Source: Bacteroidota bacterium
GTDB taxonomy: Bacteria > Bacteroidota > Bacteroidia > AKYH767-A > OLB10
Assembly: GCA_016717325.1 (NCBI GenBank)
Contig: JADKFV010000017.1
Span: forward strand, 1,533 to 65,532
Direction: 5' to 3'
Length of the DNA: 64,000 bases
Shown: positions 43,701 to 63,838 of the stretch, piece after piece
How the letters are laid out: the number at the start of each line of letters is the position of its first letter
Position numbering within the stretch: position 1 is the first letter of the stretch
Translations under genes and position numbers: made by a program
The notes under the pieces: generated by a model
What the model was told of the DNA's origin: nothing
Seen by the model: the letters and a program-made list of their open reading frames with translations, nothing else
The model's database searches: none

Positions 43701-44675
43701 GTAACACTTACTGCAAGTACCGGAAGTTCTTACCTTTGGTCAACAGGGGCAATCACGCAGTCTATTACTGTTGGTCAGGCGGGTTCATATGCTGTTACCG
43801 TTTTTGATAATGGCGGTTCGGCTACTTCATCACCTGTTATTGTCACTACCAAAGCTTCGCCTAATGCTACCGTTACCACAAATGGTCCAACTACATTCTG
43901 CAAAGGGCTAAGTGTAAAACTTTATATAGACGATGAATCAACGGTTTGGTATCCTGGAGCCAAAGTTGGTAAATCTTACACTGTGACTGATCAAAATGGC
44001 TACTATGGTATTGTAACAGGCACCAATGGCTGTACAAAAAAATCGGTTACTACAAATGTGGTAGTAACAAATTGTAACGCAAATTGTGTTACGCCTTACA
44101 ATTTAGTGTTGGTAACAAAAACAAATAACTATGCCCGTATACGTTGGGACTTTTCTCTTACCTCTGCCAATTACAATATTGAAGTAAAAGACATGACTAC
44201 CAATGCGATAAACACTTTTTATATAGGACCTTACCACAATTTGAAATTGTATAATTTAATTGGAGGAAGAACTTACCAATATAGAGTGCAAAGCGTTTGC
44301 GGAAATACTACATCGGCTTACAGTGCAGTTGCATATTTCACAACAAATACGCAAAAAGGTGGTATTGATAATACCAACGATGATTTTGAATCAGTTGCAT
44401 TTGATTATGCAAATGCCGATGATATGTACAAATTAGTAGCGTATCCAAATCCTGCTCACGATATTATCAATTTTGCCTTTGTAAGCAACTCTGAAACTAA
44501 CCGCACATTAGAAATATTTGATACACAGGGAAAGGTAGTTTACTCAAAACAATATTTTGTAACAGAAGGGTTTAATACCATCAATTTTGATTGTAGTGTT
44601 TTAAAACAAGGAATGTATCTGGCTCGCATTTTCAATGATAGCGAATCTCACGCTGCGCGAATTACCATTAAGTAA
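40774..44675 (+). pseudogene. Large T9SS-secreted LamG/FN3/Ig-repeat protein, paralog of 45108..49601, frameshifted near 41240-41250
   Basis: ORFs 40711..41319 and 41415..44675 align along their whole length with the 45108 protein. Frame 3 reads YGYYVDNKWHHLVFKANLATGVKEIWVDGQLPAG, matching the paralog's YYTDGNWHHIVFKFNASQGKKEIWVDGLLANG. The shift lies between DGIGQS and KQYGYY. T9SS CTD at the C-terminus. Confidence 0.6.
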
Positions 44676-44698
44676 ATAGAATATTTTATCTTTTAAAA

Positions 44699-44737
44699 GA
44701 AAGACTGCTTATTAAAGAGCAGTCTTTTTTTTTGACT
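44699..44737 (+). terminator. Rho-independent terminator
   Basis: AAGACTGCT-TATTAAA-GAGCAGTCTT hairpin followed by T9. Confidence 0.7.
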
Positions 44738-45107
44738 AATTCCGGGTGGTGCTTTCCTTTCGATTCTTGTTTGGGTTGATATTCTTGCTTGAATTTAGAT
44801 AGCCATTACTATAAAATATGCTATAAGAACACGCATAAATTTCTACAAATTTTTAAAGCTGTACAATGTTCGAATTATTAATCAAAACATACGTACTAAT
44901 TTTATCAGATTCAACAAGACAACGCAACTACTTTGCAATTTCACGCTGGAGCATCAAAAATGAAAAAAACACAATATTGGGTGAACGTATTTATTATTGT
45001 GGTTAATATCCCACATTTGCATCTGTAAGATTTTTCTAATCAATAAAATGATTTTGATTTTAGTATAGTAAACTTTTTAACGGCTATACTTTTTTTTTAC
45101 TTTTTAT

Positions 45108-48100: not shown

Positions 48101-49601
48101 TGCCAACAGCGGCATGGCATATTTATGGTCGAATGGGCAAAACACACAATCGATTACAGTTACAGTTGCAGGAACGTATACAGTTACAGTTACCGATTTT
48201 AATGGGCTACAAAGTAATGCATCGCAAAGTGTAATTGTAAATCCACGCCCTGCAACGCCTGTAACCAACAGCGATTATATTATTGGAACCGGATACAACC
48301 TTAAAGCAGAACAACCAAATGCAACTTCATTTTTATGGTCAACAGGCAATACAACAAACTTAATAGCTGTAAATAGTACAGGCATTTATACAGTGGCCGC
48401 AAGCGATGGTAAATGTTTGTCGCTACCTGCCACTATTAATGTTGCAAGCTTAAGCCCTAAATCATGTGTTGCACCCGACATGCTTACAGCTCACGACATT
48501 ACAACAAATTCAGCCATTGTAAGCTGGAACGGTGCAATAGCTGCCGATTCATTTGTTGTGTTGTATTATGCTGATTTTACCAATCAATTATTTTATAAAA
48601 CCGTCAGTGGTATTTCGAATGAGTTGCGAATCAACAATCTTACTGCGACTAAAGGGTATAAGGTAACCGTTATTGCTAAATGTGGCGCATCGAGTTATTA
48701 TTCTGCACGAATTAGTTTTACCACCCTAAGTACCAGCTTGCCTTGCGTGGCAATTCCGCATGATTTAACAGTAAGTAATTTAACTTATAATTCTGTAAAT
48801 CTTTCGTGGTTCAGTACCGTGGCCGATTCATTTGAAGTACGCTACAAAACCAGTTTAAGTACAAATTATGTTATTAAAAAAGTGGCAGGTGGGCTAAACA
48901 GCAGCCTAATTATATCGCCATTGTTAAGCAACAAAGATTATGTGTGGAGTGTGCGATCTTTTTGCAATGGTGTGGCCAGCATGTACTCGTTCGATAAGTT
49001 TTTTAAAACACCATCGGCAAGTGGCTTGTGCGATTCTCCCATAGGAGTTTTTGTTAACGCAGTTACAGGAAGCACTGCCGAATTGATGTGGGACAACAGT
49101 AGTAATCCTGACTCGGTTGTTATTAAATACCGCATACCGGCAGTTACTCCTTATAAATATATTAAACTAAGTGGCAATCCAAATCCGGGCGATGCCTGGA
49201 TAGAAAATCTATCGCTTAACACCACTTACAAAGTTGAAGTTAAATATGTGTGCTCGGGTATTTCGTCCGACTACACTACGCCACTTTATTTTACTACTGC
49301 CAATTCAAACGGCCGTATGTTGAACGAAGAGCAATCGTCATCAGGAATTCTTTCACCTATCAATATTTATCCAAACCCTGCTAACAGCATAGTGCATTAC
49401 GATATCAACAGCAATGCTGAATCAAATGTTCAAGTGCGCATTTCTGACGCTTTGGGTCATCGCATGTTCAGCCATGAACACACATGTACTCAAGGTATAA
49501 ATTCATTCGAAGTCTTTATTGAGGGATGGCCTTCAGGAATTTATGTGTTCGAAATGATTAATGCAGGAGTTGTGTATAAATACAAACTAAATGTGTATTG
49601 A
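45108..49601 (+). CDS. Large T9SS-secreted protein: LamG-like N-domain, unknown central domain, Ig-like/SprB-like and FN3 repeats, type-A CTD
   Basis: 1497 aa. LamG-like block (WHHIVFKF..GGIDEIAIYNKDL). Repeats of the form TFCTGNNVVLTANSGMAYLWSNGQNTQSITV. FN3-like modules (PDMLTAHDITTNSAIVSWNG). CTD end ..GIYVFEMINAGVVYKYKLNVY. The start may be Met15 (MTKFIHT..). Confidence 0.75.
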   Translation: MLGCFLNVIFLLFLMTKFIHTNGVLLRLLSCWFFVSATISISKSQNIVTPLMYWTFNQPDRTADSMQYAKMDFAYYNCQYGVIDGIGGKAIDLSTASNATIGGSLVADSNIVIEFLFKPGQAFNQSQFFERYDGAISVAMSYPEINFNTKHTKFAGGTENDQFKIYLDGVSRKAFTYYTDGNWHHIVFKFNASQGKKEIWVDGLLANGFSKTIPPGVVSNSGNKDIYMSSLTSYYRYYGGIDEIAIYNKDLPNKLIYKHYLQFQQGLPYSFLNDYTQTIPTAPPVTGSIDLAEFAPGHPNVTVDFLNQLKSFPAPRYKRGHTLKENFQWMNPEYVAGRFQTGIDYDSAVANSLILQDELVKNFNYSILVSENTGFHTAYNDVKSFPGAWVNYANQNPQYKTSAICFWPQVNPQAGGFSSTSPYANCQTNPNNYYLKNSAGQFLNNVGNVSTVKYWSPVAPRDSVKNDGKTQKFLIEKLLTSLTRPLNNLNENGELLPYYTESVMTKDPAVVNDYNNSGYTDHFSYFGNRAYQFTNAYKSEFNSVLQQEGTYFSHYAVDGYNNYRAKYADMRNIQTTQNGQKYPTPDFYPRYPSYWKEVPGAWHGLQWILDCRINELAFGDNLYSPFVAAGWDVNEEINIRPAQWLGLLKILGATGAEYFYTGFFNEQGSYNYPNPPPAHPKNYIWQEVMPPLAQGITSRYEDFLRNGDLMVGDEPNKSTNNLPGYRFKTGDQSKIVSGRKLKNANKYVFAGAIEQLDNNKGSAPDESPVTITLNNQPLKFIVRRQGSVYFYDNTNVASPIFYQLDKWHENTHPYNWSKDFNIEAELYDNVSANAQIKTTLPVGAAVGDFTNYSTTVQYSNGSTPTALEYDINVRETQATYYVWVRMRSRTGINTGATIWLDNANSKNISCITSTDFHWYRIDSTTKAPISMANVVRGNHTIKIMPYNNAFEIDNIVLLKSSTTVLDNFTTTCSGVVTPASITPSGPTTFCTGNNVVLTANSGMAYLWSNGQNTQSITVTVAGTYTVTVTDFNGLQSNASQSVIVNPRPATPVTNSDYIIGTGYNLKAEQPNATSFLWSTGNTTNLIAVNSTGIYTVAASDGKCLSLPATINVASLSPKSCVAPDMLTAHDITTNSAIVSWNGAIAADSFVVLYYADFTNQLFYKTVSGISNELRINNLTATKGYKVTVIAKCGASSYYSARISFTTLSTSLPCVAIPHDLTVSNLTYNSVNLSWFSTVADSFEVRYKTSLSTNYVIKKVAGGLNSSLIISPLLSNKDYVWSVRSFCNGVASMYSFDKFFKTPSASGLCDSPIGVFVNAVTGSTAELMWDNSSNPDSVVIKYRIPAVTPYKYIKLSGNPNPGDAWIENLSLNTTYKVEVKYVCSGISSDYTTPLYFTTANSNGRMLNEEQSSSGILSPINIYPNPANSIVHYDINSNAESNVQVRISDALGHRMFSHEHTCTQGINSFEVFIEGWPSGIYVFEMINAGVVYKYKLNVY

Positions 49602-49645
49602 GGTAATATAAAATTTTTTAGATAGGTTAGAATAGCTTTTCGACA

Positions 49646-49682
49646 GCACCCCCGACTTTTCTTCGGGGGCCTTTTTTTTTCT
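49646..49682 (+). terminator. Rho-independent terminator, CCCCC..GGGGG type
   Basis: GCACCCCCGACTTTTCTTCGGGGGCC followed by T10. Confidence 0.75.
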
Positions 49683-49689
49683 TATAGTC

Positions 49690-50914
49690 TTACCTAAAAT
49701 CCTCGTACAGTAAATATTTCTTCCTTATACTTTTATACTGATTGAGTGGTTCTTGCCAACTCTTCTTTATGCTTTCTATACTATCATTATTTATAATTGC
49801 CAGTCGCAATTTATCGGTGCCCGCAAGTGTATCGAAAAAGCCTGTAAAGAATTTTATTTTATTTGGATGCAATTCATAAAACATTTTCAACCACTTCAAT
49901 TCTATTTCTTTTTTTGTTTTAATAGATTGAGCTTCAGCTTTCAAATTCAAACCATAACAAAGTGTATCGTTAAATGGTGGATTGTAATTTTTAATTCCTG
50001 TATGTGGTGTAAACGAAAAATCGTGTTTCGGATTTTCGGGAAAGCCAATTACAGTAAATGGCATTTGTAGTACCACGCCCCAAACTCACATTCGTTCCTT
50101 CGAACAAACAAACCGATGGATAAAGTAAAATAGATTCATCGCTATTTAAGTTTGGCGATGGCGGCACTTTTGGAAACCAATGTGTACTGTGCGTATAGTT
50201 TTTACATTTTACAATTTTTAAATCGAGCGGTTTTTTTGTGTCCAGCCATTTTTCGCCAACAAGCATTGTAGCATATTCGCCAATGGTAAGGCCATACACA
50301 ATGGGAATGCTTTGCATGCCAACAAATGATGCAAATGGTTTTTCCAATATGGGTCCATCAACATAAAAGCCATTTGGATTGGGCCTGTCGAGCACAATAA
50401 GTTTTTTACCATTATCGGCACATGCTTCCATTACATACTGCAACGTTGATATGTAAGTGTAAAAACGCACACCTACATCTTGTATATCGAACACTACAAT
50501 ATCTATATCTTTCAAATCATCAGCAGTAGGTTTCAAATGTTTGCCATACAACGATACTATTGGAATTCCGGTGATATCATCCTGATCGCTATGAACTTTT
50601 TCGCCTGCTTGTGCAAGCCCGCGGAATCCATGTTCGGGGGCAAATATTTTTTTTATACGAATGTTGTACGATAAAAGTGTATCAACCAAATGTGTAGTAT
50701 TGATAAGAGAAGTATGATTGCCCACCACTGCCACATTTTTTGTGCGCAAGTCATTCAGGTAAGCCTGCATATCGTAACTACCCGGCTGTACAGGCATGTT
50801 AAAAGTAACAACAGCCAATCCCACATTATCTTTCGTACTTGCATTTTGCGATTTGCAAGAACCGTGAAATAAAAGAATGCAACCAAAAATTACTATCGAT
50901 TTCAATTTTCTCAT
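49690..50914 (-). pseudogene. DUF1343 (NamZ-like exo-beta-N-acetylmuramidase) family protein, frameshifted near 50065
   Basis: 49991..50914 carries the family N-terminal and central parts and ends ..LFEGTNVSLGRGTT. The expected continuation MPFTVIGFPE.. is in ORF 49690..50076, in another frame. A single-base indel at ACAAATG explains the split. Confidence 0.6.
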
Positions 50915-51130
50915 TGTGTAAAAATATGCTTTCGATGATTGTACTTTTCAATACTGCATCGAATCTTTTTAACGCACTTATCAATACATTTATTAAATTC
51001 TTAAAATAGGACCATCATCTCAATAACATACAAAATAGCGGCCGAAAACAATTTCAAAAATAACCACTCTATAAATTCATTTTTTTCTGTGTAATATTGT
51101 GCTGCGTAAAATGCAAACACAAAAACTGTT

Positions 51131-51730
51131 TTGATAAATACTGCTGACGATATCTCCTTAATAAAACAATATGCTGCCTCAGGTAACAAAGACTTGATTG
51201 GCGAATTGTTTCAGCGACACCGTATGTTTGCTTTTGCCGTTGCCCGCAAGTATATGGATGACGATGATGATGCCAAAGATGCTGCTATGACTGTTTTTTC
51301 CGGCTTATTCGACTCACTCAAAAATTTTGTACCAAATGATTTTAAGCCCTGGCTGCACCATGTAATTAAGAATCATTGCCTTATGAAATACAGGGCTGCA
51401 TCGGCACAAATGCGGAGCGATGATGCCATTAAGATTAATTTTTATGCCGATGTGGAAACAGGACAAAGCATGCATCTTGATACTGATAAAGAACATGTAC
51501 TTAACGCAATGGAAGAAGCGGTAATGCAACTAAACGATGAACAGCAAATATGCGTGAGGATGTTTTATCTCGAAAATAGATCGTACGATGATATTCAAAA
51601 AGAAACAGGTTACGATTTCAAAAAAGTGAAAAGTTGCATTCAAAACGGAAAAAGGAATTTAAAAATAATGCTTACCGATAAATTTAAAGACATTACTCTT
51701 GTTTTATTAATGCTATCATTACTGAACTAA
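51131..51730 (+). CDS. ECF-type sigma-70 family RNA polymerase sigma factor
   Basis: 199 aa. Region-2-like LIGELFQRHRMFAFAVARKY and region-4 HTH (ICVRMFYLENRSYDDIQKETGY). Confidence 0.85.
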   Translation: MINTADDISLIKQYAASGNKDLIGELFQRHRMFAFAVARKYMDDDDDAKDAAMTVFSGLFDSLKNFVPNDFKPWLHHVIKNHCLMKYRAASAQMRSDDAIKINFYADVETGQSMHLDTDKEHVLNAMEEAVMQLNDEQQICVRMFYLENRSYDDIQKETGYDFKKVKSCIQNGKRNLKIMLTDKFKDITLVLLMLSLLN

Positions 51731-52976
51731 TGAACAACGCAAATAAAAATAACATATTCGCAGCTACGGCTCATCCGCCTACCGAAGAGTTGGTGAAATA
51801 TGTGAACAAACAACTTGAAGCTGATGCAACACGCTCAGTTGAAAATCACATTGCCGATTGCGAGCCATGTAGCGATGCAGTGGATGGATTGTTACTTTCG
51901 AAACAAAACATTGCAGATATAGATAAGAACCTTGAGCAACGTATACAAGCACAGTTAATCAATACCAAAAAAGTAATTCCATTATATAAGCGATGGTACA
52001 TGGCCACGGCAGCTATGCTGGCATTGGTTTTTGTTTCGGGTTATCTGATATTAAATTATGTGGGTAAAAATAATTCTGTGGCCGATGTAATTAAGAAACT
52101 GCAACAACTCCAGCCAATGAAACAGCAGTTGAGCAAACAGAAACGGTTGAAGACAAAAAAGCAATAGCAAATAAAGCAGTAACCATTGAAACTCTAAAAG
52201 ATGACGTCCCTGCCGACATGCCTGTGCCTGAAAGTTCAAAAGAAAAGGCGTTGGCGAATGTAAATACTGACGAAAAATTTAAGCAACCTACCATAGAAAA
52301 AAGAGAAGATTTAGCGAGTGGTAAACAATCGGAACAAACTGTGGTTACCAACGAAAGTAGACGTGACGTAGAGGAGCAACCGGCTGTGGCAGAAAAGACA
52401 GCAGTGTATACGCAAACTAAAGATGTGCAGGCAACAACAGAAATGGATGATGAAAAAGTGCCTGCTGAAAATGCCAAAAACGTTGAAGCACTGAGTAAAA
52501 AAAGTAACAAACCTGCTGCTGCCACTACAAGTGGTGGTGCAGTAAACAACCTCGACAACGTTGTTGTTTTAGAAACAAAGGCAAAAAGAAAAAAGGTAAG
52601 GCTGGAAAGCAATGATGCAACTTTCGATTATAGTGCTTTTGAACAAGCCCGCACTTTATATAACAATAAAGAATACGCAAAAGCACTACCCATGTTCGAA
52701 GCATTGATGGTGCATAATACCGACAACAAATTTTCTTTTTACTATGCTGGTATGTGCGCCTATTATCAAAACAATCACAAATTGGCCGATACCTATCTAT
52801 CACAATCATCGGGCGATAAGCGTTTCGAAATGTATGAGTTGTCCATGTGGTATCAGGCATTATCGCTTATTCAACTCAACAAACCTGCCGAAGCAAAAAA
52901 ATTACTTGTAAAAGTTGTTAACCTTAAGAAAAGCAAAAAAGACGAAGCTGCCAATTTGCTCAAAGAATTGAAATAG
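51730..52976 (+). pseudogene. Anti-sigma factor (zinc-finger N-terminus, one TM helix, acidic linker, C-terminal TPR-like domain), split by a frameshift within 52095-52165
   Basis: Start overlaps the sigma stop (TAATG). HIADCEPCSD zinc motif and a TM helix. The frame of ORF 52218..52976 is open back to 52095 (ETATTPANETAVEQTETVEDKK..) and overlaps the first ORF across an A6 run. Confidence 0.55.
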
Positions 52977-53241
52977 TACCACTTCCAAAATTCTGTAAAT
53001 CTTTTCTCGATTTTCACTTTGAGCAACATTTTATGTTTCGCAAAAAAACCACGTTATACCAAAACAACTAAGGTTTTGCAAAAACAAGCTATTGAAGTTG
53101 TTCGGCATTACCAAGCGTTCGATATATTTTGGTTCGAAAATCTAACTTCTCTTAGTATATTTGACGGCATGAAAAGTATTTCAATCTGGTAACCAAAAAA
53201 TTGTTTTGGAAACTTTTTCTCACAAAATCTAAAATAGTTGT

Positions 53242-53802
53242 ATGAAGTTAATAGTGTTTTGCGGACCATCGGGGAGTGGGAAAACGAGTATAAAAAATTA
53301 CTTGATGCAACGCATAGAAGTTTTGAGCTTTTCGGTATCGGCAACTACCCGTGCTATGCGAACCAACGAACACGATGGTGTAGACTATTACTTTCTAACG
53401 GTTGAGGAATTTAAAAACAAAATAAACAACCACGAATTTGTAGAGTGGGAAGAGGTTTATGCCAATGGATTTTATGGCACATTAAAATCGGAAGTTGAAC
53501 GGCTTGCGGCATTAAACAAAGTAGTGATTTTTGATGTAGATGTGGAAGGCGGATTGAATATAAAAAAAGCCTATGGCCATCAATGTCTGGCATTATTTGT
53601 TTGCCCACCTTCGATTGAAGAACTGCGTAAGCGATTAACCAAACGTGGTACCGAAACTGATGAGAGCCTGCAAAAGCGAATAACTAAAGCCGAATTGGAA
53701 TTAACGTACAAAAACAAATTTGATGGCGTGATAGTGAACGAAAATTTTGAAACCGCCTGTGACGATTCCGAAAAGTTAGTTTTGCAATTTATACATAATT
53801 AA
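53242..53802 (+). CDS. gmk: Guanylate kinase
   Basis: 186 aa. P-loop GPSGSGKTS and GMP-binding SATTRAMR. Confidence 0.9.
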   Translation: MKLIVFCGPSGSGKTSIKNYLMQRIEVLSFSVSATTRAMRTNEHDGVDYYFLTVEEFKNKINNHEFVEWEEVYANGFYGTLKSEVERLAALNKVVIFDVDVEGGLNIKKAYGHQCLALFVCPPSIEELRKRLTKRGTETDESLQKRITKAELELTYKNKFDGVIVNENFETACDDSEKLVLQFIHN

Positions 53803-53821
53803 CCATAACAGTATACGTACA

Positions 53822-54397
53822 ATGCTAATAGGTTTATTTTTTGGCTCGTTTAACCCCGTACATAACGGACATATGATTATTGCACAACACATGTGTGAAA
53901 ATACCGATATGGCCGAAGTGTGGATGGTAGTAAGTCCGCACAATCCACTAAAGCCGCTTGGCTCACTATTGCAAGATTACCACCGCCTGCAACTTGTGCG
54001 CATTGCCATAGGCGATTACAAAAAAATAAAAGCCTCCAATATCGAATTCACATTACCAAAACCATCTTATACTATTCACACCCTGGCATATTTAAAAGAC
54101 AGGCACCCCGAACATGAGTTTGCGCTTATAATGGGAATGGACAACCTGTGCACCTTAAACAAATGGAAAAACTATGAGCAAATACTGGAGCAATACAGCA
54201 TATATGTTTATCCTCGTTTAGGCTCTGACGATTGCGAATTTGCAAACCATCCCAAAGTAAGAATTACTACTGCACCCATTATGGAACTTTCGTCAACAGT
54301 GATACGTAATTCTATAAAAGCCAAAAAAGATGTGCGGTACATGATGCCCGAAAGCGTGTATAATTATATTGATGAAATGAACTTTTACAGGAAGTAG
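53822..54397 (+). CDS. nadD: Nicotinate-nucleotide adenylyltransferase
   Basis: 191 aa. GLFFGSFNPVHNGHM (HxGH) motif and the C-terminal SSTVIRN motif. Confidence 0.9.
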   Translation: MLIGLFFGSFNPVHNGHMIIAQHMCENTDMAEVWMVVSPHNPLKPLGSLLQDYHRLQLVRIAIGDYKKIKASNIEFTLPKPSYTIHTLAYLKDRHPEHEFALIMGMDNLCTLNKWKNYEQILEQYSIYVYPRLGSDDCEFANHPKVRITTAPIMELSSTVIRNSIKAKKDVRYMMPESVYNYIDEMNFYRK

Positions 54398-54437
54398 AAA
54401 TGGTTGAGCTTTCCATCCCGAAAAAAACTCCAAAAAA

Positions 54438-54467
54438 AAAGCGCACCAACCGATGCGCTTTTTTTAT
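54438..54467 (+). terminator. Rho-independent terminator
   Basis: AGCGCA-CCAACCGA-TGCGCT hairpin followed by T8. Confidence 0.7.
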
Positions 54468-54982
54468 ATTATCGATTCAGAAAAATTATTTCAATCCGAG
54501 TTTTGCTTTTACTAATGGAAGAATAACAAAGCAAAATTTAATATCCGCTTTACCATTTAATAAACACAACTGTCATAATAAAATTGATGGCTAAAATTAG
54601 TAGTGAAAAATTCAGAGCGCAAAAGTATTTTAAAATTATACTCCTTTTTGTTTTGTGCAGAAATAAAAAATATGGTTCATAACTATCATGAAATTTGGTT
54701 TGCTTTAACAAAATCTAATTTTAATATTTGACGTATCGAAAGCAGATAGTGCAACATGCCCCCTTCGAAAAAGTTTTTTTTGAAGACCATTATTTTCTTA
54801 TAAAAGTGTAACGCCCGTTACCCATGTTATTTGGCTTTGTTTGTTTGCGTTACCAATTTTGTTCTACAATGTTTTACTAAACAAATTAAAAACAACGATT
54901 ATGCAAAATTCAAAAACACACTCCGAAAAAAAATTCTGTCAAACAGAAAAAATCTCAAACCTTGTTGATTGTGGCGCGATTA

Positions 54983-57900
54983 ATGATTATAACGCGAGCT
55001 CCCCCCCCCCCCCCCGAAAGGAAAGATAAACTCAAAATAATAAACAAAATTCTGCTGGCATTTATTTTGTTTCTCACTTCTAATCTATCTTATTCAAATA
55101 CATGCTTTAATTCAATTGTAAAAATTGTTACCCCAGCTTGTACTTATGATACTTTAACTACAAATGATTCTATAGTATGGTTTAGTTTTATCGCAACAAC
55201 ACCCAATACTGCCATTGCCTTTTATAAAAACGCCAATTCAGGCACTCCAATTTTTGAACAGGTTGAAATTTACGATGGCACATGTAATACGCTCAATTTA
55301 ATTGATACAGCAGAAATATTAAGTGATACTTTTTGCTTTAGTAATCGAAATAACTATGTGATTGGAAGTACATATTACATTAAATTGAAACAGAAATGTA
55401 TTCAAAATCAAACATGTTTCATCAACGCTAGTTCTGTTTTTGTAAGCATATACCAAACAATACTATATAATCAAAGCGTGGATCCATGTAACTATGTCAT
55501 AAATCCTCAATTTGAAATGGGGCCAATACCGCTGCTATTAGACCGCATAGTAACTGCCTCTGGTTGGTTCCGTAATTTAATTGGCAGCACATTGCCTTGT
55601 AATGGTTACAGCCCAAACACTCCAGATTTACTTGATGTAAATTCACCAAATCCAATTGTTCGACCTAACACAAATCAATATGGGAATGGCATACCATTTA
55701 CGCCTCATAGTGGAAATAGAGTTGCAAATTATGGAACTGCTGAATCTTTTGTGGGCACTGTATTTCCAAACTTGCCTGTTGGCACATATACATTCAGCTT
55801 TTATGCAATTATACAAGGGCAATTTTGTAATAATCCATACCTCAATAATTCATGTGTTGTCAATATAATGAGTAACTGTGGCACTAAGCAAAATATTTTT
55901 AACCAAACTATTAATATGAGCAATGCTAACTGCAATACGTGGACTTTGTTTCAATCCAGTTTTCAAATTACAAATACGAGTTTGAATAGGTTGGAATTCA
56001 CTTGGGATAACTCTAATACAAATTTACCGCACAATGGGCTTTATATTGATGACGTCTCAATTGCTAGAAGCTGCAAAACAACTATTACCACGACACTGCC
56101 TTGCATTGGACAAGCTAACGGAACTGCTACTGCCACTTCCGATTGCCCTGTTATTGATTATTTATGGAGCAATGGACAAACAACTTCAACAGCTACTGGA
56201 CTCTCAGCTGGTACGTATACTGTAACAGTTACTGACGACAAAGGCTGCTCGAGAACATCATCAATTATTTTAACTGAAATTAATGGGTTCACATTGTCAA
56301 TTTTTAGTACGCCTAATTGCATTGGCGACAATACTCATACAGGCACTGCTATAGTAACTCCTAGTGTAATAGGTCAATATACTTATTTATGGAATAATGG
56401 GCAAGTAACCTCAGTCGCTACTGGTTTAATTGCTGGCACTTACACTGTGACAGTTACAAACGTTAATGGATGTACGAAAACAGCTACTGTTATTGTGGAT
56501 AACTCATACTCTTTTACTGTAACCACCACCACCACAGGTGACTGCACAGGCGAAGCAACAGGCACGGCAACAGCAATCGCAAACCAACCGGGGCCACTCA
56601 CTTATTTATGGAGCAACGGCCAAACCACTCAAACAGCCACAGGCCTGTTTGCAGGTACGTATACTGCAACAGTTACCGATGCGAATGGCTGCACAAATAG
56701 TGCATCGGCAACTATAGTTGATTTAAGCGAAAATGTACCAATAATAAGTGCCAGCAGTTTCACATCCTGCATAAAAGATTTAGCGCAAACTTTTAAGGAC
56801 ATTGATTTGACAATAGACAATTATGTAAACGACCCTGCATACATATACACGTGGAGCTTTGTGCCAACGGGCGCGCCTGCCGCTACCTTGGTTGGCAATG
56901 GTAGCACAGCCGTGCTGACTACGTATGGTATGGGTGGTACCGTAACCGTTCACCTCAGCGTTAATGGCTGTGATTTTTATACTAACTATTATATACAAGA
57001 TTGCTGCGAAGGTGTGCCATCGCAACCAAACAGCACTACATTGGTTGATATAGATGCCTCTGACCTTATTGCTATGTATGGCGGTAATCCTACTGTAACC
57101 ACAAATGATAATTTATATTTTAATGGCACACTTACAGTTAACGTTCCGTTTTTTGCATTTAGCAATTGCCAATTTTTAAATTTTGGCCCTGCCGCAAAAA
57201 TTGTTTGCTCACCAAACACCACTTTACAAATAGATGGTAGTCACCTGCAAGCATGTAATACTATGTGGTATGGCATAGAAATGGGGCATAGCTCAAGTAT
57301 CATATTGGAAAATAATATTATACAAGATGCGCAGTATGCAGTGAAGGCAACAGATAATTGCCAAACAACTTTGGTAAACAACGATATGAATGATAACTTT
57401 GTATCGTATTATGTAGCGCCAAACATAACTTCGCAAATGATAAACGGAGCCATACAAGAAAATCGTTTTTATACTGTAAACCAATTGGTGCAGCCTTACC
57501 TTGGCCAAACACCCGTAATACACACGCACAGCTTTGCAGGTATATGGATAAACGATGTTACAGCACTTACCATTGGCTCATACAATGCGGCTGCGTCAAA
57601 AAATATTTTCCGCAACCTCAACAATGGCATTATAAGCAACCGCACCAACCTTACTTCGCTGTATAATATTTTTGACGATATAAGTAGCAAAGGTGGCTAT
57701 AGTGGTCTCACAAATACTACACTATTTAACCACACCGGTACAGGCATTACCGCTTATGGTGGTATAGGTTACATAGCAGATATAGCGGGCGATGCCGGGC
57801 CGGGCAATGCTGTGGAGTATATCAATTGCTTTCGTGGTATATATGTAGATGGCTTGCAAGCAAAAGTGTACGACCACGAATTTACCACTACCAACACTAC

Positions 57901-59764
57901 AGGTATAAACCGTATAGGCATAGCAGTAACTAATATGAACCATACGCCAACACATATATTTAGAAATACCATACATGCAACGCAGGCAGGTATACGAGCC
58001 ACCGAAAATTATGCAAGCGTTTATATTTACGACAATACAATTACAATAGATAACCCTGCATATAATCAATTTTTTAGAACAGGAATTTCTATTGATAATT
58101 TTACCAATGCACTTGGTGCTGATATAGATGTGCACCACAACCACGTATACATGACCGATGCCCGCAGAGGGATATGGCTGCGCAATATAAAAGGGGCATG
58201 GGTGCATGAGAATGATGTATGGATGCAATATGCAAACACATACCACACAGGCGGTGTTTACGACTATGGCATACTTGCCGAAAATAGCCCAAGTGGCACA
58301 ATAGACTGCAACAGCGTAACCGGCAATGCCTTCCAAGGCGACCCGGGTGCGGCCCCACAAACATTTGCATTTGGCTTTAACCTAAGCACCGACAACATAG
58401 TAAGCTGCAACCACAGCGACAATACCGATGTAGGTTTTAACTTTACAGGTGCCTGCCAAAATACAGATTTTAAAGGGAACCAAATTGATAGGCATTGGGC
58501 GGGGTTGAGGTTGGCAAGTAGTGTGTTTGGTGTCCAGAATGATGCAGGGAATTTGTGGCATCTTAGGCATACATATCCGGCACTTGGAGCTAGGTTGGAT
58601 TTTAGTGCTCCACTCCCAAATGAAATACGTACTCCAGCAGTATTGCCCTACACACCGATTAATAATGGGGGATTTAATACTTGGTTCAAAGCTCCCAATG
58701 CTGCACCATATAGTTGTTCATCTTTATATTGCTCTGCACCATTCCGCATAGGTGGGGATAGCAGCGTTATAAATGAAGATGAATTGCGAGCAATTGAAGG
58801 TGATAGTGTTGTTACAGAATTTAATCCTCAAGTTAGTGACGATACGAAAAAACGATTGTACGAGAAACTACTTAGTAATCCAACTTTACAAAATACAAGC
58901 AGTGATATAACGCAGTACTTTGCTGAAGCACAAAATAATGACATTGGTACTGTAAATGCTGTAAAAAATAAAACTAGTGAAGTGGGTGAATTAATAAAGA
59001 GTAATGCCACTTTAATCAATCCATTAGCCAATGCTCAAAATGCGCTTTTGTTGCAGTTAAGAACAAATGATAGCATAATTAATACTACTACAGATAGCTT
59101 GCTGAAATTAATTTTAATTGAACAAAATAACATTCTTTCAAATGGACTTGACAGTTTAAAAGAGCAAATAGAAACTATATCCATTGGGGAACAAATAGTA
59201 GAAAATCAAAAGTATGACGAAGCAAAAACAATAAACAACAATATGATGGCACAAGAAGTTTTTGACTATAATACGAGTGTTATAACTGATATTTATTTAT
59301 CGAAAATTGCAAAAAATAATTTTCAATTAAGCACAGCACAGATTAATGAAGTAGTTAGCATTGCAAACATGTGTCCACTAATAGGTGGTCCTGCCGTGTA
59401 TTTGGCAAGGCCGATTGTAGAGCTATATGATGAAAACATTGTTTACAATGACCAAGCTGTATGCTTGAGCCAGGGCGTAAGTATGAAATTAGCAAATGGA
59501 AATGCTCCAACACAAGCAAATGAAAACACAGTGGTGCAAGTTTTTCCAATACCAAGTAAGGATGTTGTAAATTTTAATTTTGGCAACCTCCAATTTAATG
59601 GTCTGTTGATATTTGATAGCTATGGAAAACAAATTGAAGAAGTAAAATTAAATGTAAAGCACCAATACACTTTGCAAACAAATGTATTTGCAAACGGTAT
59701 ATATCGTTATAAATTAATGAACGATACGATTGAATTAACGGGTAAAATTGTAATTGTAAAATAA
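54983..59764 (+). CDS. Giant T9SS-secreted adhesin-like protein: SprB-type repeats, right-handed parallel beta-helix region, type-A CTD
   Basis: About 1594 aa from ATG 54983. Four repeats of the form C.G.ANGTATA..YLWSNGQTT..TGL.AGTYTVTVTD. Beta-helix-like NN.I..N blocks. CTD ..NGIYRYKLMNDTIELTGKIVIVK. The signal region contains PPPPP, encoded by C15. Confidence 0.75.
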   Translation: MIITRAPPPPPERKDKLKIINKILLAFILFLTSNLSYSNTCFNSIVKIVTPACTYDTLTTNDSIVWFSFIATTPNTAIAFYKNANSGTPIFEQVEIYDGTCNTLNLIDTAEILSDTFCFSNRNNYVIGSTYYIKLKQKCIQNQTCFINASSVFVSIYQTILYNQSVDPCNYVINPQFEMGPIPLLLDRIVTASGWFRNLIGSTLPCNGYSPNTPDLLDVNSPNPIVRPNTNQYGNGIPFTPHSGNRVANYGTAESFVGTVFPNLPVGTYTFSFYAIIQGQFCNNPYLNNSCVVNIMSNCGTKQNIFNQTINMSNANCNTWTLFQSSFQITNTSLNRLEFTWDNSNTNLPHNGLYIDDVSIARSCKTTITTTLPCIGQANGTATATSDCPVIDYLWSNGQTTSTATGLSAGTYTVTVTDDKGCSRTSSIILTEINGFTLSIFSTPNCIGDNTHTGTAIVTPSVIGQYTYLWNNGQVTSVATGLIAGTYTVTVTNVNGCTKTATVIVDNSYSFTVTTTTTGDCTGEATGTATAIANQPGPLTYLWSNGQTTQTATGLFAGTYTATVTDANGCTNSASATIVDLSENVPIISASSFTSCIKDLAQTFKDIDLTIDNYVNDPAYIYTWSFVPTGAPAATLVGNGSTAVLTTYGMGGTVTVHLSVNGCDFYTNYYIQDCCEGVPSQPNSTTLVDIDASDLIAMYGGNPTVTTNDNLYFNGTLTVNVPFFAFSNCQFLNFGPAAKIVCSPNTTLQIDGSHLQACNTMWYGIEMGHSSSIILENNIIQDAQYAVKATDNCQTTLVNNDMNDNFVSYYVAPNITSQMINGAIQENRFYTVNQLVQPYLGQTPVIHTHSFAGIWINDVTALTIGSYNAAASKNIFRNLNNGIISNRTNLTSLYNIFDDISSKGGYSGLTNTTLFNHTGTGITAYGGIGYIADIAGDAGPGNAVEYINCFRGIYVDGLQAKVYDHEFTTTNTTGINRIGIAVTNMNHTPTHIFRNTIHATQAGIRATENYASVYIYDNTITIDNPAYNQFFRTGISIDNFTNALGADIDVHHNHVYMTDARRGIWLRNIKGAWVHENDVWMQYANTYHTGGVYDYGILAENSPSGTIDCNSVTGNAFQGDPGAAPQTFAFGFNLSTDNIVSCNHSDNTDVGFNFTGACQNTDFKGNQIDRHWAGLRLASSVFGVQNDAGNLWHLRHTYPALGARLDFSAPLPNEIRTPAVLPYTPINNGGFNTWFKAPNAAPYSCSSLYCSAPFRIGGDSSVINEDELRAIEGDSVVTEFNPQVSDDTKKRLYEKLLSNPTLQNTSSDITQYFAEAQNNDIGTVNAVKNKTSEVGELIKSNATLINPLANAQNALLLQLRTNDSIINTTTDSLLKLILIEQNNILSNGLDSLKEQIETISIGEQIVENQKYDEAKTINNNMMAQEVFDYNTSVITDIYLSKIAKNNFQLSTAQINEVVSIANMCPLIGGPAVYLARPIVELYDENIVYNDQAVCLSQGVSMKLANGNAPTQANENTVVQVFPIPSKDVVNFNFGNLQFNGLLIFDSYGKQIEEVKLNVKHQYTLQTNVFANGIYRYKLMNDTIELTGKIVIVK
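55001..55015 (+). repeat. C15 homopolymeric tract inside the 5-prime coding region (signal-peptide n-region) of the giant T9SS gene
   Basis: Seen directly: GAGCT C15 GAAAGG. It encodes PPPPP in the current frame. Confidence 0.9.
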
Positions 59765-59771
59765 TTATTAG

Positions 59772-59808
59772 AAAGGGAAACAGGTAATTCTGTTTCCCTT
59801 TTATTTTT
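59772..59808 (+). terminator. Rho-independent terminator
   Basis: AGGGAAACAG-GTAATT-CTGTTTCCCT hairpin followed by a T-rich run. Confidence 0.7.
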
Positions 59809-59817
59809 AAAATAACG

Positions 59818-61314
59818 ATGAAAAAAAATATTTTGATTTTATTGTTTTGTACTTGTTATACAACAATGTTTGCGCAAAAATACATGAATAATCTTGCTTT
59901 TAATGGAGAATATTTTTTATCTAATGACTCTTTTAATTTTATTTTAAGCAACTATAAGTTGAATACTCCTGTATATCAATATCTTGATTCTTCCGATTTG
60001 TGGATGGGTAACCATTCTGCATTAATAGCTGACAGCACTGGGCAGTTAATTTTCTATACAAATGGATGCTCAGTAGGGAATAAAAATTTTGAAATGATAC
60101 CAGGTACTGATACCTTGGAATATACAAGCATAGTTATCACTTGCCCCTATGGCCAACCAAACTTGAATGGGGCATTTTTTCTACCCTCACTCACAAATCC
60201 AAATGAAATTCTTTTGTTTCATAAAGACGATCAGTTTACTACCAATTGGAATTGGATTTTTGCCACAAGTTACAATGCTTGGTTTACGGTGCTTGACAAA
60301 ACTATGAATAATGGCTTAGGCGGCTTGGTATCGCGTAATAATATTTTGTATAATACTGAAACATGCAGAGATGGATTTCAAGCAGTGAAACATGCTAATG
60401 GCAGGGATTATTGGATTGTGATGCAAGATTTTGATACCAGTACTTTTGTTACTTTTCTCTACACGCCTACCGGTTTTTCTGTGCCCTTTTTTCAAAATAT
60501 GAATATCCCTCTTTATCGTGGGGGTACGCCTAATGCTATATTTAATAGACAAGGCACAAAATATGCAACCACCGCTTGGAATAATAATTTAATGCTATTT
60601 GACTTTGACAGATGTACCGGGCAGTTCAAATATAATAATCAGGTTGATACTACTTGGCAATATTTAGGTTTTTTCTTTTGCTTTTCGGCAAAAGGCAACA
60701 AAATATATCGAATGGATAACAGCGATAAAATTTACCAATACGATACTGCCGATGTTGATTTTAATATTTCGCGCGATACGGTTGCTATATACGATGGATT
60801 CTTTGATGGTGATTCCACAAAATTCGTTACAATGTTTTTAGCTGCCGATGATAAAATATACATAAATTCAGCTATTGGCTATCAACATGTGATTAACAAA
60901 CCTGATTTGACTGGCATTTCATGTAATATTTTGCAGCACAGCATTAAACACCCGGCATCGGTTGGTAATGCCTTCCCCAACTACATCAACTACGATTTAG
61001 GGCCGCTTCTGGGTAGCCCATGTGATACGCTTTCTATCCTCACCCCGGCCCTCTCCAAAGGAGAGCGTGTAATGCAATGCTTTCCTAATCCGGCAACAAA
61101 TGAAGTAAACATAAAAATAAACAATGTGCCGCTTGGTAATTATACACTTAGTATATACACACCGTTAGCCAATGAGGTAATGCACATAGAAGGCAAAAGC
61201 ACGGTAAAAGATTTTACAAAAACATTACGTGTTCAGAGCCTTGCAAGTGGTTTTTATTTTGTAAAGTTGCAGGTGGAGGAAATGGAGTGGTATGGGAGGT
61301 TTGTGAGGGAGTAG
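59818..61314 (+). CDS. T9SS type-A CTD secreted protein, paralog P1
   Basis: 498 aa. Signal peptide. CTD CFPNPATNEVNIKINNVPLGNYTLSIY..FYFVKL. Paralogous along its whole length to 62336..63838. Confidence 0.7.
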   Translation: MKKNILILLFCTCYTTMFAQKYMNNLAFNGEYFLSNDSFNFILSNYKLNTPVYQYLDSSDLWMGNHSALIADSTGQLIFYTNGCSVGNKNFEMIPGTDTLEYTSIVITCPYGQPNLNGAFFLPSLTNPNEILLFHKDDQFTTNWNWIFATSYNAWFTVLDKTMNNGLGGLVSRNNILYNTETCRDGFQAVKHANGRDYWIVMQDFDTSTFVTFLYTPTGFSVPFFQNMNIPLYRGGTPNAIFNRQGTKYATTAWNNNLMLFDFDRCTGQFKYNNQVDTTWQYLGFFFCFSAKGNKIYRMDNSDKIYQYDTADVDFNISRDTVAIYDGFFDGDSTKFVTMFLAADDKIYINSAIGYQHVINKPDLTGISCNILQHSIKHPASVGNAFPNYINYDLGPLLGSPCDTLSILTPALSKGERVMQCFPNPATNEVNIKINNVPLGNYTLSIYTPLANEVMHIEGKSTVKDFTKTLRVQSLASGFYFVKLQVEEMEWYGRFVRE

Positions 61315-61349
61315 CCCCTAAATCCCCCGCTGGGGGACTTGAACACCCC

Positions 61350-61880
61350 CAACCCCCGCTGGGGGCTTACCAAAGCTCGGATGGCATATTGTGTGTTTAT
61401 CTTATTTAGTTGCAAAAAAAATGGTATCTCATGGATAAATTGTATTTTGAAAGTTTGTATAAAGGCGCAAAGCCAATTCAATTTGAATTTGCACAACAGA
61501 TGCGCAAAGAGCCTACACAGGCAGAATCAATTTTATGGACATATTTATCCGGCAAGCAAATGCAAGGTTTGAAATTTAGAAGGCAACATCCATTAGACAA
61601 TTTTATTTTAGATTTTTATTGTCATGAAATAAAATTGAGTATCGAATTGGATGGGAAAATACATCAGAATGAATTGCAAGCAACTTATGATAAAGAACGA
61701 ACCAAGTGCTTACAAGATAAGGGCATTAACGAACTCCGATTTAAAAATGAAACAATCATTAATCGAATTACTGATGCACTCAATGAAATTGAAAAAACAA
61801 TAAGACAAATAAAACGAAAGCAATATGATACCAAAAATCCAGCATAGCAAAGACAAGCCCCCAGCGGGGGTTGGGGGTGT
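61350..61880. mobile_element. Mini-element: DUF559 endonuclease-like gene flanked by perfect 20-bp GC-rich terminal inverted repeats (CCCCCAACCCCCGCTGGGGG on the left, CCCCCAGCGGGGGTTGGGGG on the right)
   Basis: The left repeat at about 61350-61375 and the right repeat at about 61856-61880 are exact reverse complements. An extra CCCCCGCTGGGGG hairpin lies at 61333. Inserted between two paralogous genes. Confidence 0.6.
61410..61847 (+). CDS. DUF559 domain protein (Vsr/restriction-endonuclease-like fold)
   Basis: 145 aa. ESILW..LKFRRQHPLDNFILDFYCHEIKLSIELDGKIH..YDKERTKCLQDKGINELRFKN matches the DUF559 signature (FRRQ, DFYC, IELDG.H, D.ER, LRF.N). Confidence 0.75.
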   Translation: MQKKWYLMDKLYFESLYKGAKPIQFEFAQQMRKEPTQAESILWTYLSGKQMQGLKFRRQHPLDNFILDFYCHEIKLSIELDGKIHQNELQATYDKERTKCLQDKGINELRFKNETIINRITDALNEIEKTIRQIKRKQYDTKNPA

Positions 61881-61888
61881 ATTATTAC

Positions 61889-62280
61889 CGCAATGCCCCC
61901 TGATAGGTGGCTCAGCTGTGTATTTGGCAAGACCAATTGTAGAAATGTTTGATGACAATATCATGTACAATGATGCGGCAATTTGTTTAAGTCAAGGGGT
62001 TATTATGAAAATGTCAAATCAAGTAACAGCGGATGAAACTATTGCCACCGTAAAAGTATATCCAAACCCGGCTAAAGATGAAATCAATTTTGAATTTGGG
62101 AACGGCACATATTTCAAACTAATTATTTATGATAGTTTTGGTAAAGAAATACGTTTGGAATTAATGCAAAGCAAAATTGAATACAAATTATCAACCACAG
62201 ATATTGCAAATGGCATTTATCGTTATAAGTTAATTGGTGTGCCACATGAAATATCCGGAAAAATTGTAATATTAAAGTAA
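61889..62280 (+). pseudogene. Orphan C-terminal fragment (last about 130 aa including the T9SS CTD) homologous to the C-terminus of the giant 54983..59764 protein
   Basis: CPLIGGSAVYLARPIVEMFDDNIMYNDAAICLSQGV..NGIYRYKLIGVPHEISGKIVILK aligns with the giant's ..NMCPLIGGPAVYLARPIVELYDENIVYNDQAVCLSQGV..NGIYRYKLMNDTIELTGKIVIVK. Homology begins right after the DUF559 element's right repeat. Confidence 0.6.
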
Positions 62281-62289
62281 ATAAAAATA

Positions 62290-62321
62290 AAGAGAAGTTG
62301 TTAAGGCAACTTCTCTTTTTA
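62290..62321 (+). terminator. Rho-independent terminator
   Basis: AGAGAAGTTG-TTAAGG-CAACTTCTCT hairpin followed by T5. Confidence 0.6.
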
Positions 62322-62335
62322 CATTCTACTAAACA

Positions 62336-63838
62336 ATGAAAAGTTTAATAATTTTAATTTTCACTTTTTGTACCCATGCATGTTTTTCGCAGAAGTATTT
62401 AAACAACTTAGCCTTCTTTGGGTATAACTATGGTGGAAATGACTCTAACTTTGTTCTTATTGATTATAAAAATGGCATTCCAATTAATCAATACATTGAT
62501 TCATCCGCTTTGAAAATGAATGCTACTCTTGCATTAATTGCCGATAGTATCGGGAATTTACTTTTTTACACAAACGGAACAAGAATAGGAAATAAAAATT
62601 TAGAAGTGATACCAAATGGAGATACTTTGGATGCGAGTCCTTGCGGATTAAATTGGGGGCAACAAGGCTTTGGGTTAAATATGCCAAATGGTGCTTTCTT
62701 CTTGCCCTCCTTATCAAATCCAAATGAAGTTTTGCTTTTTCATTTAGATTGTGATTACATTATTTTGTTTAATATGGCACTTGGCTTAAGTCATAATTTT
62801 TGGTACACAGTACTTGATACTACAATGAACAATGGACTTGGGGGTGTGGTAACAAGAAACAATGTATTATACAATGGTGAGCTGGGTTGGGGCGGTTTGC
62901 AAGCCGTAAAACATTCAAATGGTAAAGATTATTGGTTAGTGGCACAAGATTTAGACACCTCTTATTTTATTACTTGGTTATATTCTGATGCAGGATTTGC
63001 TGGTCCTTTTTTTCAAAATTTGAATATACCACTTTGGCGAATAACAACAGTTAATTCAATGTTTAATCGCCAGGGAAATAAATATGCATCTGTTGCTTGG
63101 AATCAGAATTTAATGTTGTTTGATTTTGATAGATGTACCGGGCAATTTAAATTTAACAATCAAGAGGATACAGCTTGGTTGTATTTAGGCAATTTGTTCT
63201 GCTTTTCATCAAATGGAAATAAAATTTATCGAACAGATGGCACAAATATTTTTCAATACGACACAGCCGATGTTGACTTTAATATTTCGCGCGATACGGT
63301 TGCTATATATGACGGATATTTTGATGTTGACTCGACAAAATTTGGCACCATGTTTTTAGCTGGGGATGATAAAATTTATATTAATGCATCGGGAACAAAA
63401 TATCAACATGTAATAAATAAGCCTGATTTGTCAGGTATTGCATGTAATTTAACGCAACATTCCATTAAGCATCCGCTTTATATTGGTGCTTCCTTCCCCA
63501 ACTACATCAACTACGATTTAGGGCCGCTTGTGGGGAGTCCGTGTGATACTTTATCTGTCCTCACCAATACCCCCAACCCCCTACAAGGGGGCTTAATGCA
63601 ATGCTTTCCAAACCCGGCAACAAATGAAGTAAACATAAAAATAAACAATGTGCCGCTTGGTAATTATGTACTTAGTATATACTCACCGTTAGCCTATGAG
63701 GTAATGCACATAGAAAGCAAAAACACTGCGAAAGATTTTACAAAAACATTACGCGTTCAGAGCCTTGCAAGTGGTTTTTATTTTGTAAAGTTGCAGGTGG
63801 AGGGGATGGAGTGGTATGGGCGGTTTGTGAGGGATTAG
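62336..63838 (+). CDS. T9SS type-A CTD secreted protein, paralog P2
   Basis: 500 aa. Collinear with P1. Identical CTD core. Differs by a short GC-rich palindromic segment at the domain junction. Confidence 0.7.
   Translation: MKSLIILIFTFCTHACFSQKYLNNLAFFGYNYGGNDSNFVLIDYKNGIPINQYIDSSALKMNATLALIADSIGNLLFYTNGTRIGNKNLEVIPNGDTLDASPCGLNWGQQGFGLNMPNGAFFLPSLSNPNEVLLFHLDCDYIILFNMALGLSHNFWYTVLDTTMNNGLGGVVTRNNVLYNGELGWGGLQAVKHSNGKDYWLVAQDLDTSYFITWLYSDAGFAGPFFQNLNIPLWRITTVNSMFNRQGNKYASVAWNQNLMLFDFDRCTGQFKFNNQEDTAWLYLGNLFCFSSNGNKIYRTDGTNIFQYDTADVDFNISRDTVAIYDGYFDVDSTKFGTMFLAGDDKIYINASGTKYQHVINKPDLSGIACNLTQHSIKHPLYIGASFPNYINYDLGPLVGSPCDTLSVLTNTPNPLQGGLMQCFPNPATNEVNIKINNVPLGNYVLSIYSPLAYEVMHIESKNTAKDFTKTLRVQSLASGFYFVKLQVEGMEWYGRFVRD

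Follow-up and report, generated by a model that had tools for sequence, protein, structure and literature searches.

Can a homopolymer at the very start of a surface-protein gene serve as a slipped-strand switch in a member of the Bacteroidota? The question is raised by a stretch of 64,000 nucleotides from a Bacteroidota bacterium (contig JADKFV010000017.1; hereafter the window), in which an adhesin-like gene of the type IX secretion system (T9SS) carries an unbroken run of 15 C at 55001–55015 on the plus strand (template strand G15), which the current frame translates as PPPPP. An initial annotation had taken this run for a candidate phase-variation switch with two states. Our analysis leads us to favor, at a probability of roughly 0.6, a translational contingency switch operated by slipped-strand mispairing. 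The initial proposal was upheld in part, in that the tract is real, lies ahead of the signal-peptide core of a T9SS surface gene and is kept in relatives, and its two-state logic had to be corrected. The features of the open reading frame (ORF) and its start on which the argument turns are as follows.

54901–54903, plus strand: upstream ATG (ATG-long) with an A-rich stretch ahead of it, in frame at tract lengths of 2 mod 3 (C14, C17).
54978–54997, plus strand: invariant 20-mer GATTAATGATTATAACGCGA, with 0 of 20 positions differing in every allele.
54983–54985, plus strand: proximal ATG (ATG-short), in frame with the ORF at C12, C15 and C18.
54983–59764, plus strand: complete ORF as currently framed (1593 aa), with the stop at 59762–59764.
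55016–55096, plus strand: signal-peptide body as read from the translation, with n-region ERKDKLKIINK, core ILLAFILFLT and c-region SNLSYS.

The tract is far beyond what chance would give, as had been stated at the outset. It is the only C/G run of seven or more in the window, the next longest being two G6 runs, and at a GC content of 36.9% (slightly above the 30–35% first quoted) base composition predicts about 1e-6 C/G runs of at least 15 in the window; 30 other Bacteroidota genomes, sampled over 475 kb, contained no C/G run longer than 8. The position also proved correct, as the tract begins 18 nt past the ATG at 54983, in frame and ahead of the signal-peptide core. The translation opens with MIITRAPPPPPERKDKLKIINKILLAFILFLTSNLSYS, in agreement with the earlier description of MIITRA, five prolines and then a hydrophobic core, and only the quoted length of 1594 aa has to be corrected, since it includes the stop. 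Codon usage speaks to the level at which the run is kept. CCC is the rarest proline codon, at 13.7% among the 12.5k codons of the window, and, given PPPPP, the chance of five successive CCC is about 5e-5; the one further PPP among those codons is encoded by the mixed series CCT-CCA-CCG. Because five copies in a row of the rarest proline codon make up the tract, selection on it appears to act at the DNA level, and it is the homopolymer, not polyproline, that is maintained. G/C runs of about 8 or more are long enough for hypermutability, a length exceeded by the C15 of the window and by the C13 and C15 of its relatives described below. In Campylobacter, Haemophilus and Neisseria, G/C runs of at least 10 mutate at about 1e-3 per division.

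We rebuilt the gene in silico with 9 to 21 C and followed its reading frames. At lengths of 0 mod 3 the ATG at 54983 is joined to the body, and at 2 mod 3 the ATG at 54901 is joined to the whole ORF, with a leader of about 49 residues ahead of the hydrophobic core that is 27 residues longer than from the ATG at 54983. At 1 mod 3 (C13, C16) no upstream start is left and only a TTG in the hydrophobic core remains, at 55067, with no ATG, GTG or TTG between it and the tract in the window. The 20-mer that carries the proximal ATG contributes to this pattern, in that its first frame reads ATG-ATT-ATA-ACG-CGA, its second contains TAA, TGA and TAA, and its third is open from the ATG at 54901. The earlier expectation that a change of one or two C truncates the protein was accordingly right for 1 mod 3 and wrong for C14 and C17, at which the ATG at 54901 comes into frame. 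Two ATGs in two frames and stops in the third predict a three-state rather than a two-state switch.

Relatives were reached through nadD homologues, their cluster members and the contigs of these, and through an adhesin homologue (P0002) on contig L031. The lineage is uncultured and known from metagenomes and metagenome-assembled genomes only, and it is poorly sampled, as no guanylate kinase of the GTDB species representatives exceeds 59% identity, which leaves no usable synteny or taxonomy beyond Bacteroidota. The tract was found in four sequence contexts: C15 in the window, at least C7 in L031, C13 in L035 and C15 in L037 and L056, which share one allele (allele C). L031 (JGI) has 88.6% nucleotide identity to window positions 55009–58530 and opens with CCCCCCC followed by GAAAGG, that is, inside the homologous tract. 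The two MEGAHIT contigs read GATCTCT-C13 (L035) and GAT-C15 (L037), and the Logan contig L056, which comes from a different sample, shares the L037 allele and likewise has C15. Two further contigs break at the same place, L038 exactly at the first C and L039 6 nt before the 20-mer ends, about 7 nt ahead of the first C. Contigs ending or starting at the tract, as L038, L039 and L031 do, would be expected from length heterogeneity or from heterogeneity downstream. Homopolymer inflation during assembly, which had been named as a finding that would refute the proposal, did not account for the tract, whose existence was seen across independent samples and assemblers.

What follows the tract is by comparison highly variable, and three elements delimit the variation.

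54529–55000, plus strand: conserved leader of about 470 bp, from the breakpoint at an ompH remnant to the tract.
55016–56430, plus strand: strain-variable cassette (signal peptide with N-terminal head domain), as defined by comparison with L035.
56158–56713, plus strand: three SprB-repeat-like units (direct-repeat family D2), which form the 3′ boundary of the variable cassette.

The window and L035 are 97.6% identical from 43840 to 55015, the last C of the tract, then unrelated over 55016–56430 (L035 11196–13092), and again 90.6% identical from 56431 on, within the SprB-like repeats. Three heads were distinguished, one shared by the window and L031, one in L035 and one in L037 and L056, and the window, L035 and L056 heads had no detectable similarity to one another as proteins. 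Since three unrelated cassettes follow the same leader and tract, this appears to be one locus with a swappable front end, in which the tract has been retained through the replacements. In each of the three cassettes a K/R-rich n-region and a hydrophobic core come directly after the tract. Searching with the head domain gave no confirmed locus among metagenome contigs and one weak, irrelevant match in a 5.8-billion protein set. The adhesin of L031, to which no other close homologue of the window type can be added, is itself divided into three ORFs by frameshifts at about 490 and about 3848, either as a pseudogene or by assembly error.

The leader is 94–98% identical in L035–L040 and L042 and about 92% identical in L056 (eight contigs in all), and it is missing from L032 and L034, both of which have an intact ompH at the site; no second leader copy was found in the window. 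Within it the 20-mer is unusual. The 32 nt directly upstream show 9–10 differences between alleles, a patch of 31% divergence, and at that local divergence an unchanged 20-mer has a probability of about 6e-4. The leader further appears as a mosaic, as the window and L035 differ in 54878–54945 (100–33 nt before the 20-mer) and not in 54946–54977, while L035 and L037 show the opposite pattern of differences within these blocks, which points to recombination inside the leader. The long-leader peptide matched, among 1.84 billion representative proteins, only a 41-aa short ORF of allele C, and none of 122 SprB-type homologues had polyproline or polyglycine near its N-terminus. With both of these searches empty elsewhere, the leader–tract unit seems confined to this locus, and no gene family seems to share the long leader. 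The 20-mer had no match in viral contigs, and the exact flank pattern with a variable gap had none in the genome or metagenome contig sets. Looking up proteins of the window by exact match likewise returned no record.

Combining alleles and frames, the tracts of the window, L037 and L056 join the ATG at 54983 to the body, and that of L035 joins the ATG at 54901 and is closed for the ATG at 54983; with its C13 preceded by TCTCT, the gene caller had indeed taken the equivalent of the ATG at 54901 in L035. Neither in the window nor in L031 or L035 is there an ATG, GTG or TTG between tract and hydrophobic core. Because the n-region follows the tract in frame without a start codon in between, the tract probably lies within the translated region. 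Allele C differs in having ATG-TTA-TGG 10 codons past the tract, a start whose signal peptide would lack the basic n-region.

If the tract is a switch of this kind, it would be a hypermutable homopolymer in the 5′ coding region of a strain-variable, T9SS-secreted adhesin-like protein, ahead of the n-region and core of a Sec signal peptide, and slipped-strand mispairing at replication would add or remove C, reversibly and at a high rate also in this organism. The length of the tract would then set which upstream start is connected to the body of 1580 codons. At 0 mod 3 the ATG at 54983 would be used, giving the short leader MIITRA-Pn; at 2 mod 3 the ATG at 54901 would be used, and export of the product, with its 27 additional leader residues, may be weak or absent; and at 1 mod 3 the stops of the 20-mer would close the frame, with the TTG in the hydrophobic core left and hence no exportable protein. 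The predicted phenotype is a population mixed of cells with and without the adhesin, which might represent bet-hedging against phage, grazers or changing attachment substrates.

Several observations weigh against such a switch. The start annotated at NCBI is a TTG downstream of the tract, allele C has its ATG 10 codons downstream, and the start codon that we use is an inferred one. With two productive frames, all of the tracts being in an 'on' state is expected by chance at about 20–30%. The contig breaks at the tract may equally reflect poor Illumina reading of homopolymers or branching into different cassettes. As to the length polymorphism among relatives that the initial annotation had proposed to look for, C13 and C15 were seen in alleles that have different flanks, and the sole allele sampled twice (L037, L056) had C15 in both samples. 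Finally, the exact count of 15 may be off by one, a doubt that arises because two neighboring conserved genes of the window carry frame-breaking indels relative to three other contigs.

Such indels, together with the fact that long homopolymers are error-prone on all platforms, are also what could be said for the tract being a sequencing or assembly artefact, either an inflated homopolymer or a chimeric join at a low-complexity run. We regard this as scarcely credible, as four independent assemblies from different samples and assemblers have a long C run at the same place and separate contigs back both the leader–tract and the tract–head joins; for the existence of the tract the artefact is effectively refuted, and only the exact number 15 is uncertain. 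A role of the tract as protein was likewise judged very improbable. PPPPP might stall ribosomes in an EF-P-dependent manner and thereby time the emergence of the signal peptide, and PPPP or PPPPP does occur in every in-frame reading, but the number of prolines and the frame vary between alleles, selection on the protein would not hold a pure homopolymer in a genome of 37% GC, and the exclusive use of the rarest proline codon, with the probability of about 5e-5 given above, is not expected from it. More serious, although in our view still unlikely, is the possibility, already named in the initial annotation, that the tract belongs to a 5′ untranslated leader, with translation starting downstream (at TTG 55067, at an ATA or ATT, or at the ATG of allele C) and tract length tuning transcription, mRNA stability or initiation instead of frame. 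The annotated TTG start and the ATG-TTA-TGG of allele C are consistent with this, as is the lack of third-position bias among the substitutions between alleles from 54901 to 54983 in the frame of the ATG at 54901. A start at TTG 55067 would, however, cost the protein its basic n-region and half of its core, and the remaining MFLTSNLSYS is no signal peptide of a T9SS cargo; moreover, the K/R-rich n-region past the tract is in the frame of the body in 4/4 contexts, the 20-mer that bears the ATG is invariant, and no TAnnTTTG-like element lies downstream, so that the tract is unlikely to be a promoter spacer.

It is also conceivable, if improbable, that the tract is mainly a recombination junction, a site of microhomology or prone to breakage (the G15 being a candidate quadruplex) at which heads are exchanged, with frame switching a by-product. 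Homology between the window, L035 and L037 does stop at the tract or within 4 nt of it and returns in the SprB repeats, the leader is a mosaic of blocks, and three gene arrangements occur downstream of nadD in one species-level group. Yet no donor with the leader or the tract was found in the window, among the 1.84 billion representatives (apart from the short ORF of allele C) or among the 122 SprB-type homologues, and a boundary at the coding start is also expected from selection on the whole secreted protein. That the leader–tract unit seems confined to the locus weakens the idea of a crossover point. Also improbable is a synthesis with the switch, in which leader, 20-mer and tract would form a fixed expression site, the tract being both a three-state switch and the 5′ junction for cassette exchange and the SprB repeats the 3′ junction; if true, it would amount to a combined system of phase and antigenic variation in environmental Bacteroidota. 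Two other models were rejected. An invertase or shufflon was dismissed as no inverted repeats surround the leader or the head cassette. A homopolymer acting on promoter spacing was set aside because the candidate promoter elements lie at least 140 nt upstream of the tract and none lies after it, although that scan is consensus-based and weak.

Returning to the translational switch, the gene behind the tract is of the class in which contingency loci are found, being a surface determinant with a T9SS sorting domain, SprB-like repeats and a hypervariable locus and head. By inspection the N-terminus has the features of a Sec signal peptide, its basic n-region being followed by a hydrophobic core of 10 residues and by a c-region with SYS, and the C-terminus carries a further feature.

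59540–59755, plus strand: T9SS type A C-terminal sorting domain (PF18962).

Por_Secre_tail (PF18962) matches residues 1520–1591 with a score of 28.1 bits (cutoff 27; E = 2.5e-6), a borderline pass, whereas TIGR04183 was not reached by the adhesin at E 0.01, and PDB and NCBIfam gave no match for it. The repeat units are strongly similar to proteins carrying PF13573, but the Pfam PF13573 model itself had no match to the adhesin even at E 5. With PF13573 unmatched and a sorting domain of type A instead of type B (PF13585), identity with the gliding-motility adhesin SprB was rejected; the protein appears to be kin to SprB in its building blocks and not an SprB orthologue. The sorting domain, the SprB-like repeats and the hypervariable head together uphold the designation as a T9SS adhesin-like gene.

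The public record of this protein, NCBI MBK9652028.1 ('Bacteroidota bacterium'), is identical to the ORF product from codon 29 on, its annotated start being TTG 55067, and the upstream nadD product has the adjacent accession. This TTG lies inside the hydrophobic core and downstream of the tract, and the annotated protein is thus without a signal peptide. Mis-called starts at such tracts are likely to be systematic. The locus carries a practical warning in this respect, in that public annotation starts past the tract and assemblies break at it, and for these two reasons such loci would be systematically mis-called in metagenome-assembled genomes.

How does this arrangement compare with known switches? 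In the lic genes of Haemophilus influenzae, alternative starts in different frames lie ahead of the repeat. As in lic1A and lic2A, a slippage-prone 5′ repeat would here be combined with several ATGs in different frames to give two translated states and an off state (for CAAT-repeat frame switching in lic, see PMC13192263). The locus differs from lic in that its repeat unit is the mononucleotide C where lic has the tetranucleotide CAAT, in that it encodes a secreted surface protein where lic encodes a cytoplasmic lipooligosaccharide-modifying enzyme, and in belonging to an environmental Bacteroidota bacterium. In Neisseria opa (CTCTT), Helicobacter pylori sabA, hopZ and oipA (CT) and the poly-G genes of Campylobacter and Neisseria, the repeat follows the start codon and precedes the part that encodes the mature surface protein, as appears to be the case here. 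Frame shifts in genes of the opa and sabA type abolish export or production, which is also what we predict for the present locus, and the product is again adhesin-like and strain-variable (for repeats in the signal-peptide region of outer-membrane adhesins, see PMC2715451 and PMC8355987). The present gene differs from these in combining Sec with type IX export, in having the repeat ahead of the whole signal peptide and not in its hydrophobic core, in its second ATG frame, and in that the downstream cassette, including the signal peptide, is swapped between strains.

A C/G run of 13–15 nt upstream of a surface-structure gene is likewise found in Bordetella pertussis fim2 and fim3 and in Neisseria porA and opc (PMC1891110, PMC3639595). 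Unlike in those genes, whose tracts set promoter spacing, the promoter candidates here lie upstream and the tract is downstream of both ATGs. The invertible promoters and shufflons of Bacteroides share with the present locus the phylum and an on/off diversity of surface structures, but they operate by site-specific inversion, and no inverted repeats flank the leader or the head cassette here. The switches described in Bacteroidota are DNA inversions, and a 2025 review lists invertase-based switching as the sole mechanism of phase variation for Bacteroides (PMC11868660). In the literature searched we found no paper linking T9SS cargo with slipped-strand switching, the one joint match being a general review. 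Nearly all known repeat-driven contingency genes come, to our knowledge, from pathogens adapted to a host, for example Neisseria, Haemophilus, Campylobacter and Helicobacter. The design seen here is that of a classical contingency locus, to which the pair of ATGs and the exchange of head cassettes at the tract are unusual additions. If the switch is real, the slipped-strand strategy would extend to a new phylum and to the T9SS surface proteome.

The leader was further inspected for regulatory elements. The promoter consensus of Bacteroides and Flavobacterium is TTTG / TAnnTTTG, and a custom scan for it gave one candidate.

54830–54861, plus strand: Bacteroidota-type promoter candidate, with TTTG at 54830, a 20-nt spacer and cAATTTTG at 54854, as inferred from the scan for TTTG / TAnnTTTG.

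No TAnnTTTG-like element was found downstream of the tract in this consensus-based scan, which is a weak test. As no promoter-like element follows the tract, a promoter-spacer role for it is unlikely. A sigma-70 promoter and terminator scan performed no better than on shuffled sequences, the promoter type being the wrong one for the phylum; Rfam gave nothing over the gathering score, its matches being the nadD terminator hairpin; and the predicted fold of the leader RNA was no more stable than shuffles (z = 0.14). A weak G-U-rich hairpin at 54962–54986 could sequester the ATG at 54983, and in allele C it is kept only in part.

The surroundings of the gene also vary. In the window a remnant of about 45 bp from the 3′ end of ompH follows nadD (54480–54528), whereas the relatives L032, L034, L053 and L054 have an intact nadD-ompH-ompH-bamA-uppS order, with a shared nadD flank of 95.4% (L032) and 97.7% (L034) identity, and a third group (L044–L052) has a 196-aa T9SS gene downstream of nadD. 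With its three arrangements, the site past nadD is a hot spot, and the adhesin block is a strain-specific replacement.

Further upstream, when compared with L034, L035 and L037, the window has a deletion of 19 bp at 52093 that splits a 421-aa gene downstream of a sigma factor into two ORFs (51730–52167 and 52218–52976). When compared with L035 and L037 it also has one additional T at 50064, which leaves a NamZ of 307 aa instead of 407 aa; L034 has its own nearby indel and a 359-aa NamZ. The changes at 52093 and 50064 are either real pseudogenes or consensus indel errors.

Six ORFs with T9SS sorting domains lie within 23 kb of the window (41415–63838), at the following positions; none of the five other than the adhesin gene has a C/G tract.

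41415–44675: T9SS sorting-domain ORF.
45108–49601: T9SS sorting-domain ORF.
54983–59764: T9SS sorting-domain ORF, the adhesin-like gene.
59818–61314: T9SS sorting-domain ORF.
61825–62280: T9SS sorting-domain ORF.
62336–63838: T9SS sorting-domain ORF.

Part of this region is a 2.5-kb tandem duplication (59372–61314 and 61894–63838, 72–93% identity) comprising the C-terminal end of the adhesin and the next T9SS gene, of 498 aa. Of the adhesin end in the second copy, nothing is left but the 151-aa ORF at 61825–62280 with its sorting domain. Between the copies, a DUF559 endonuclease-like gene (61410–61847) is located between 49-nt GC-rich inverted repeats (61343–61391 and 61832–61880), a unit that could be a small mobile insertion by which the duplicated copy of the adhesin was truncated.

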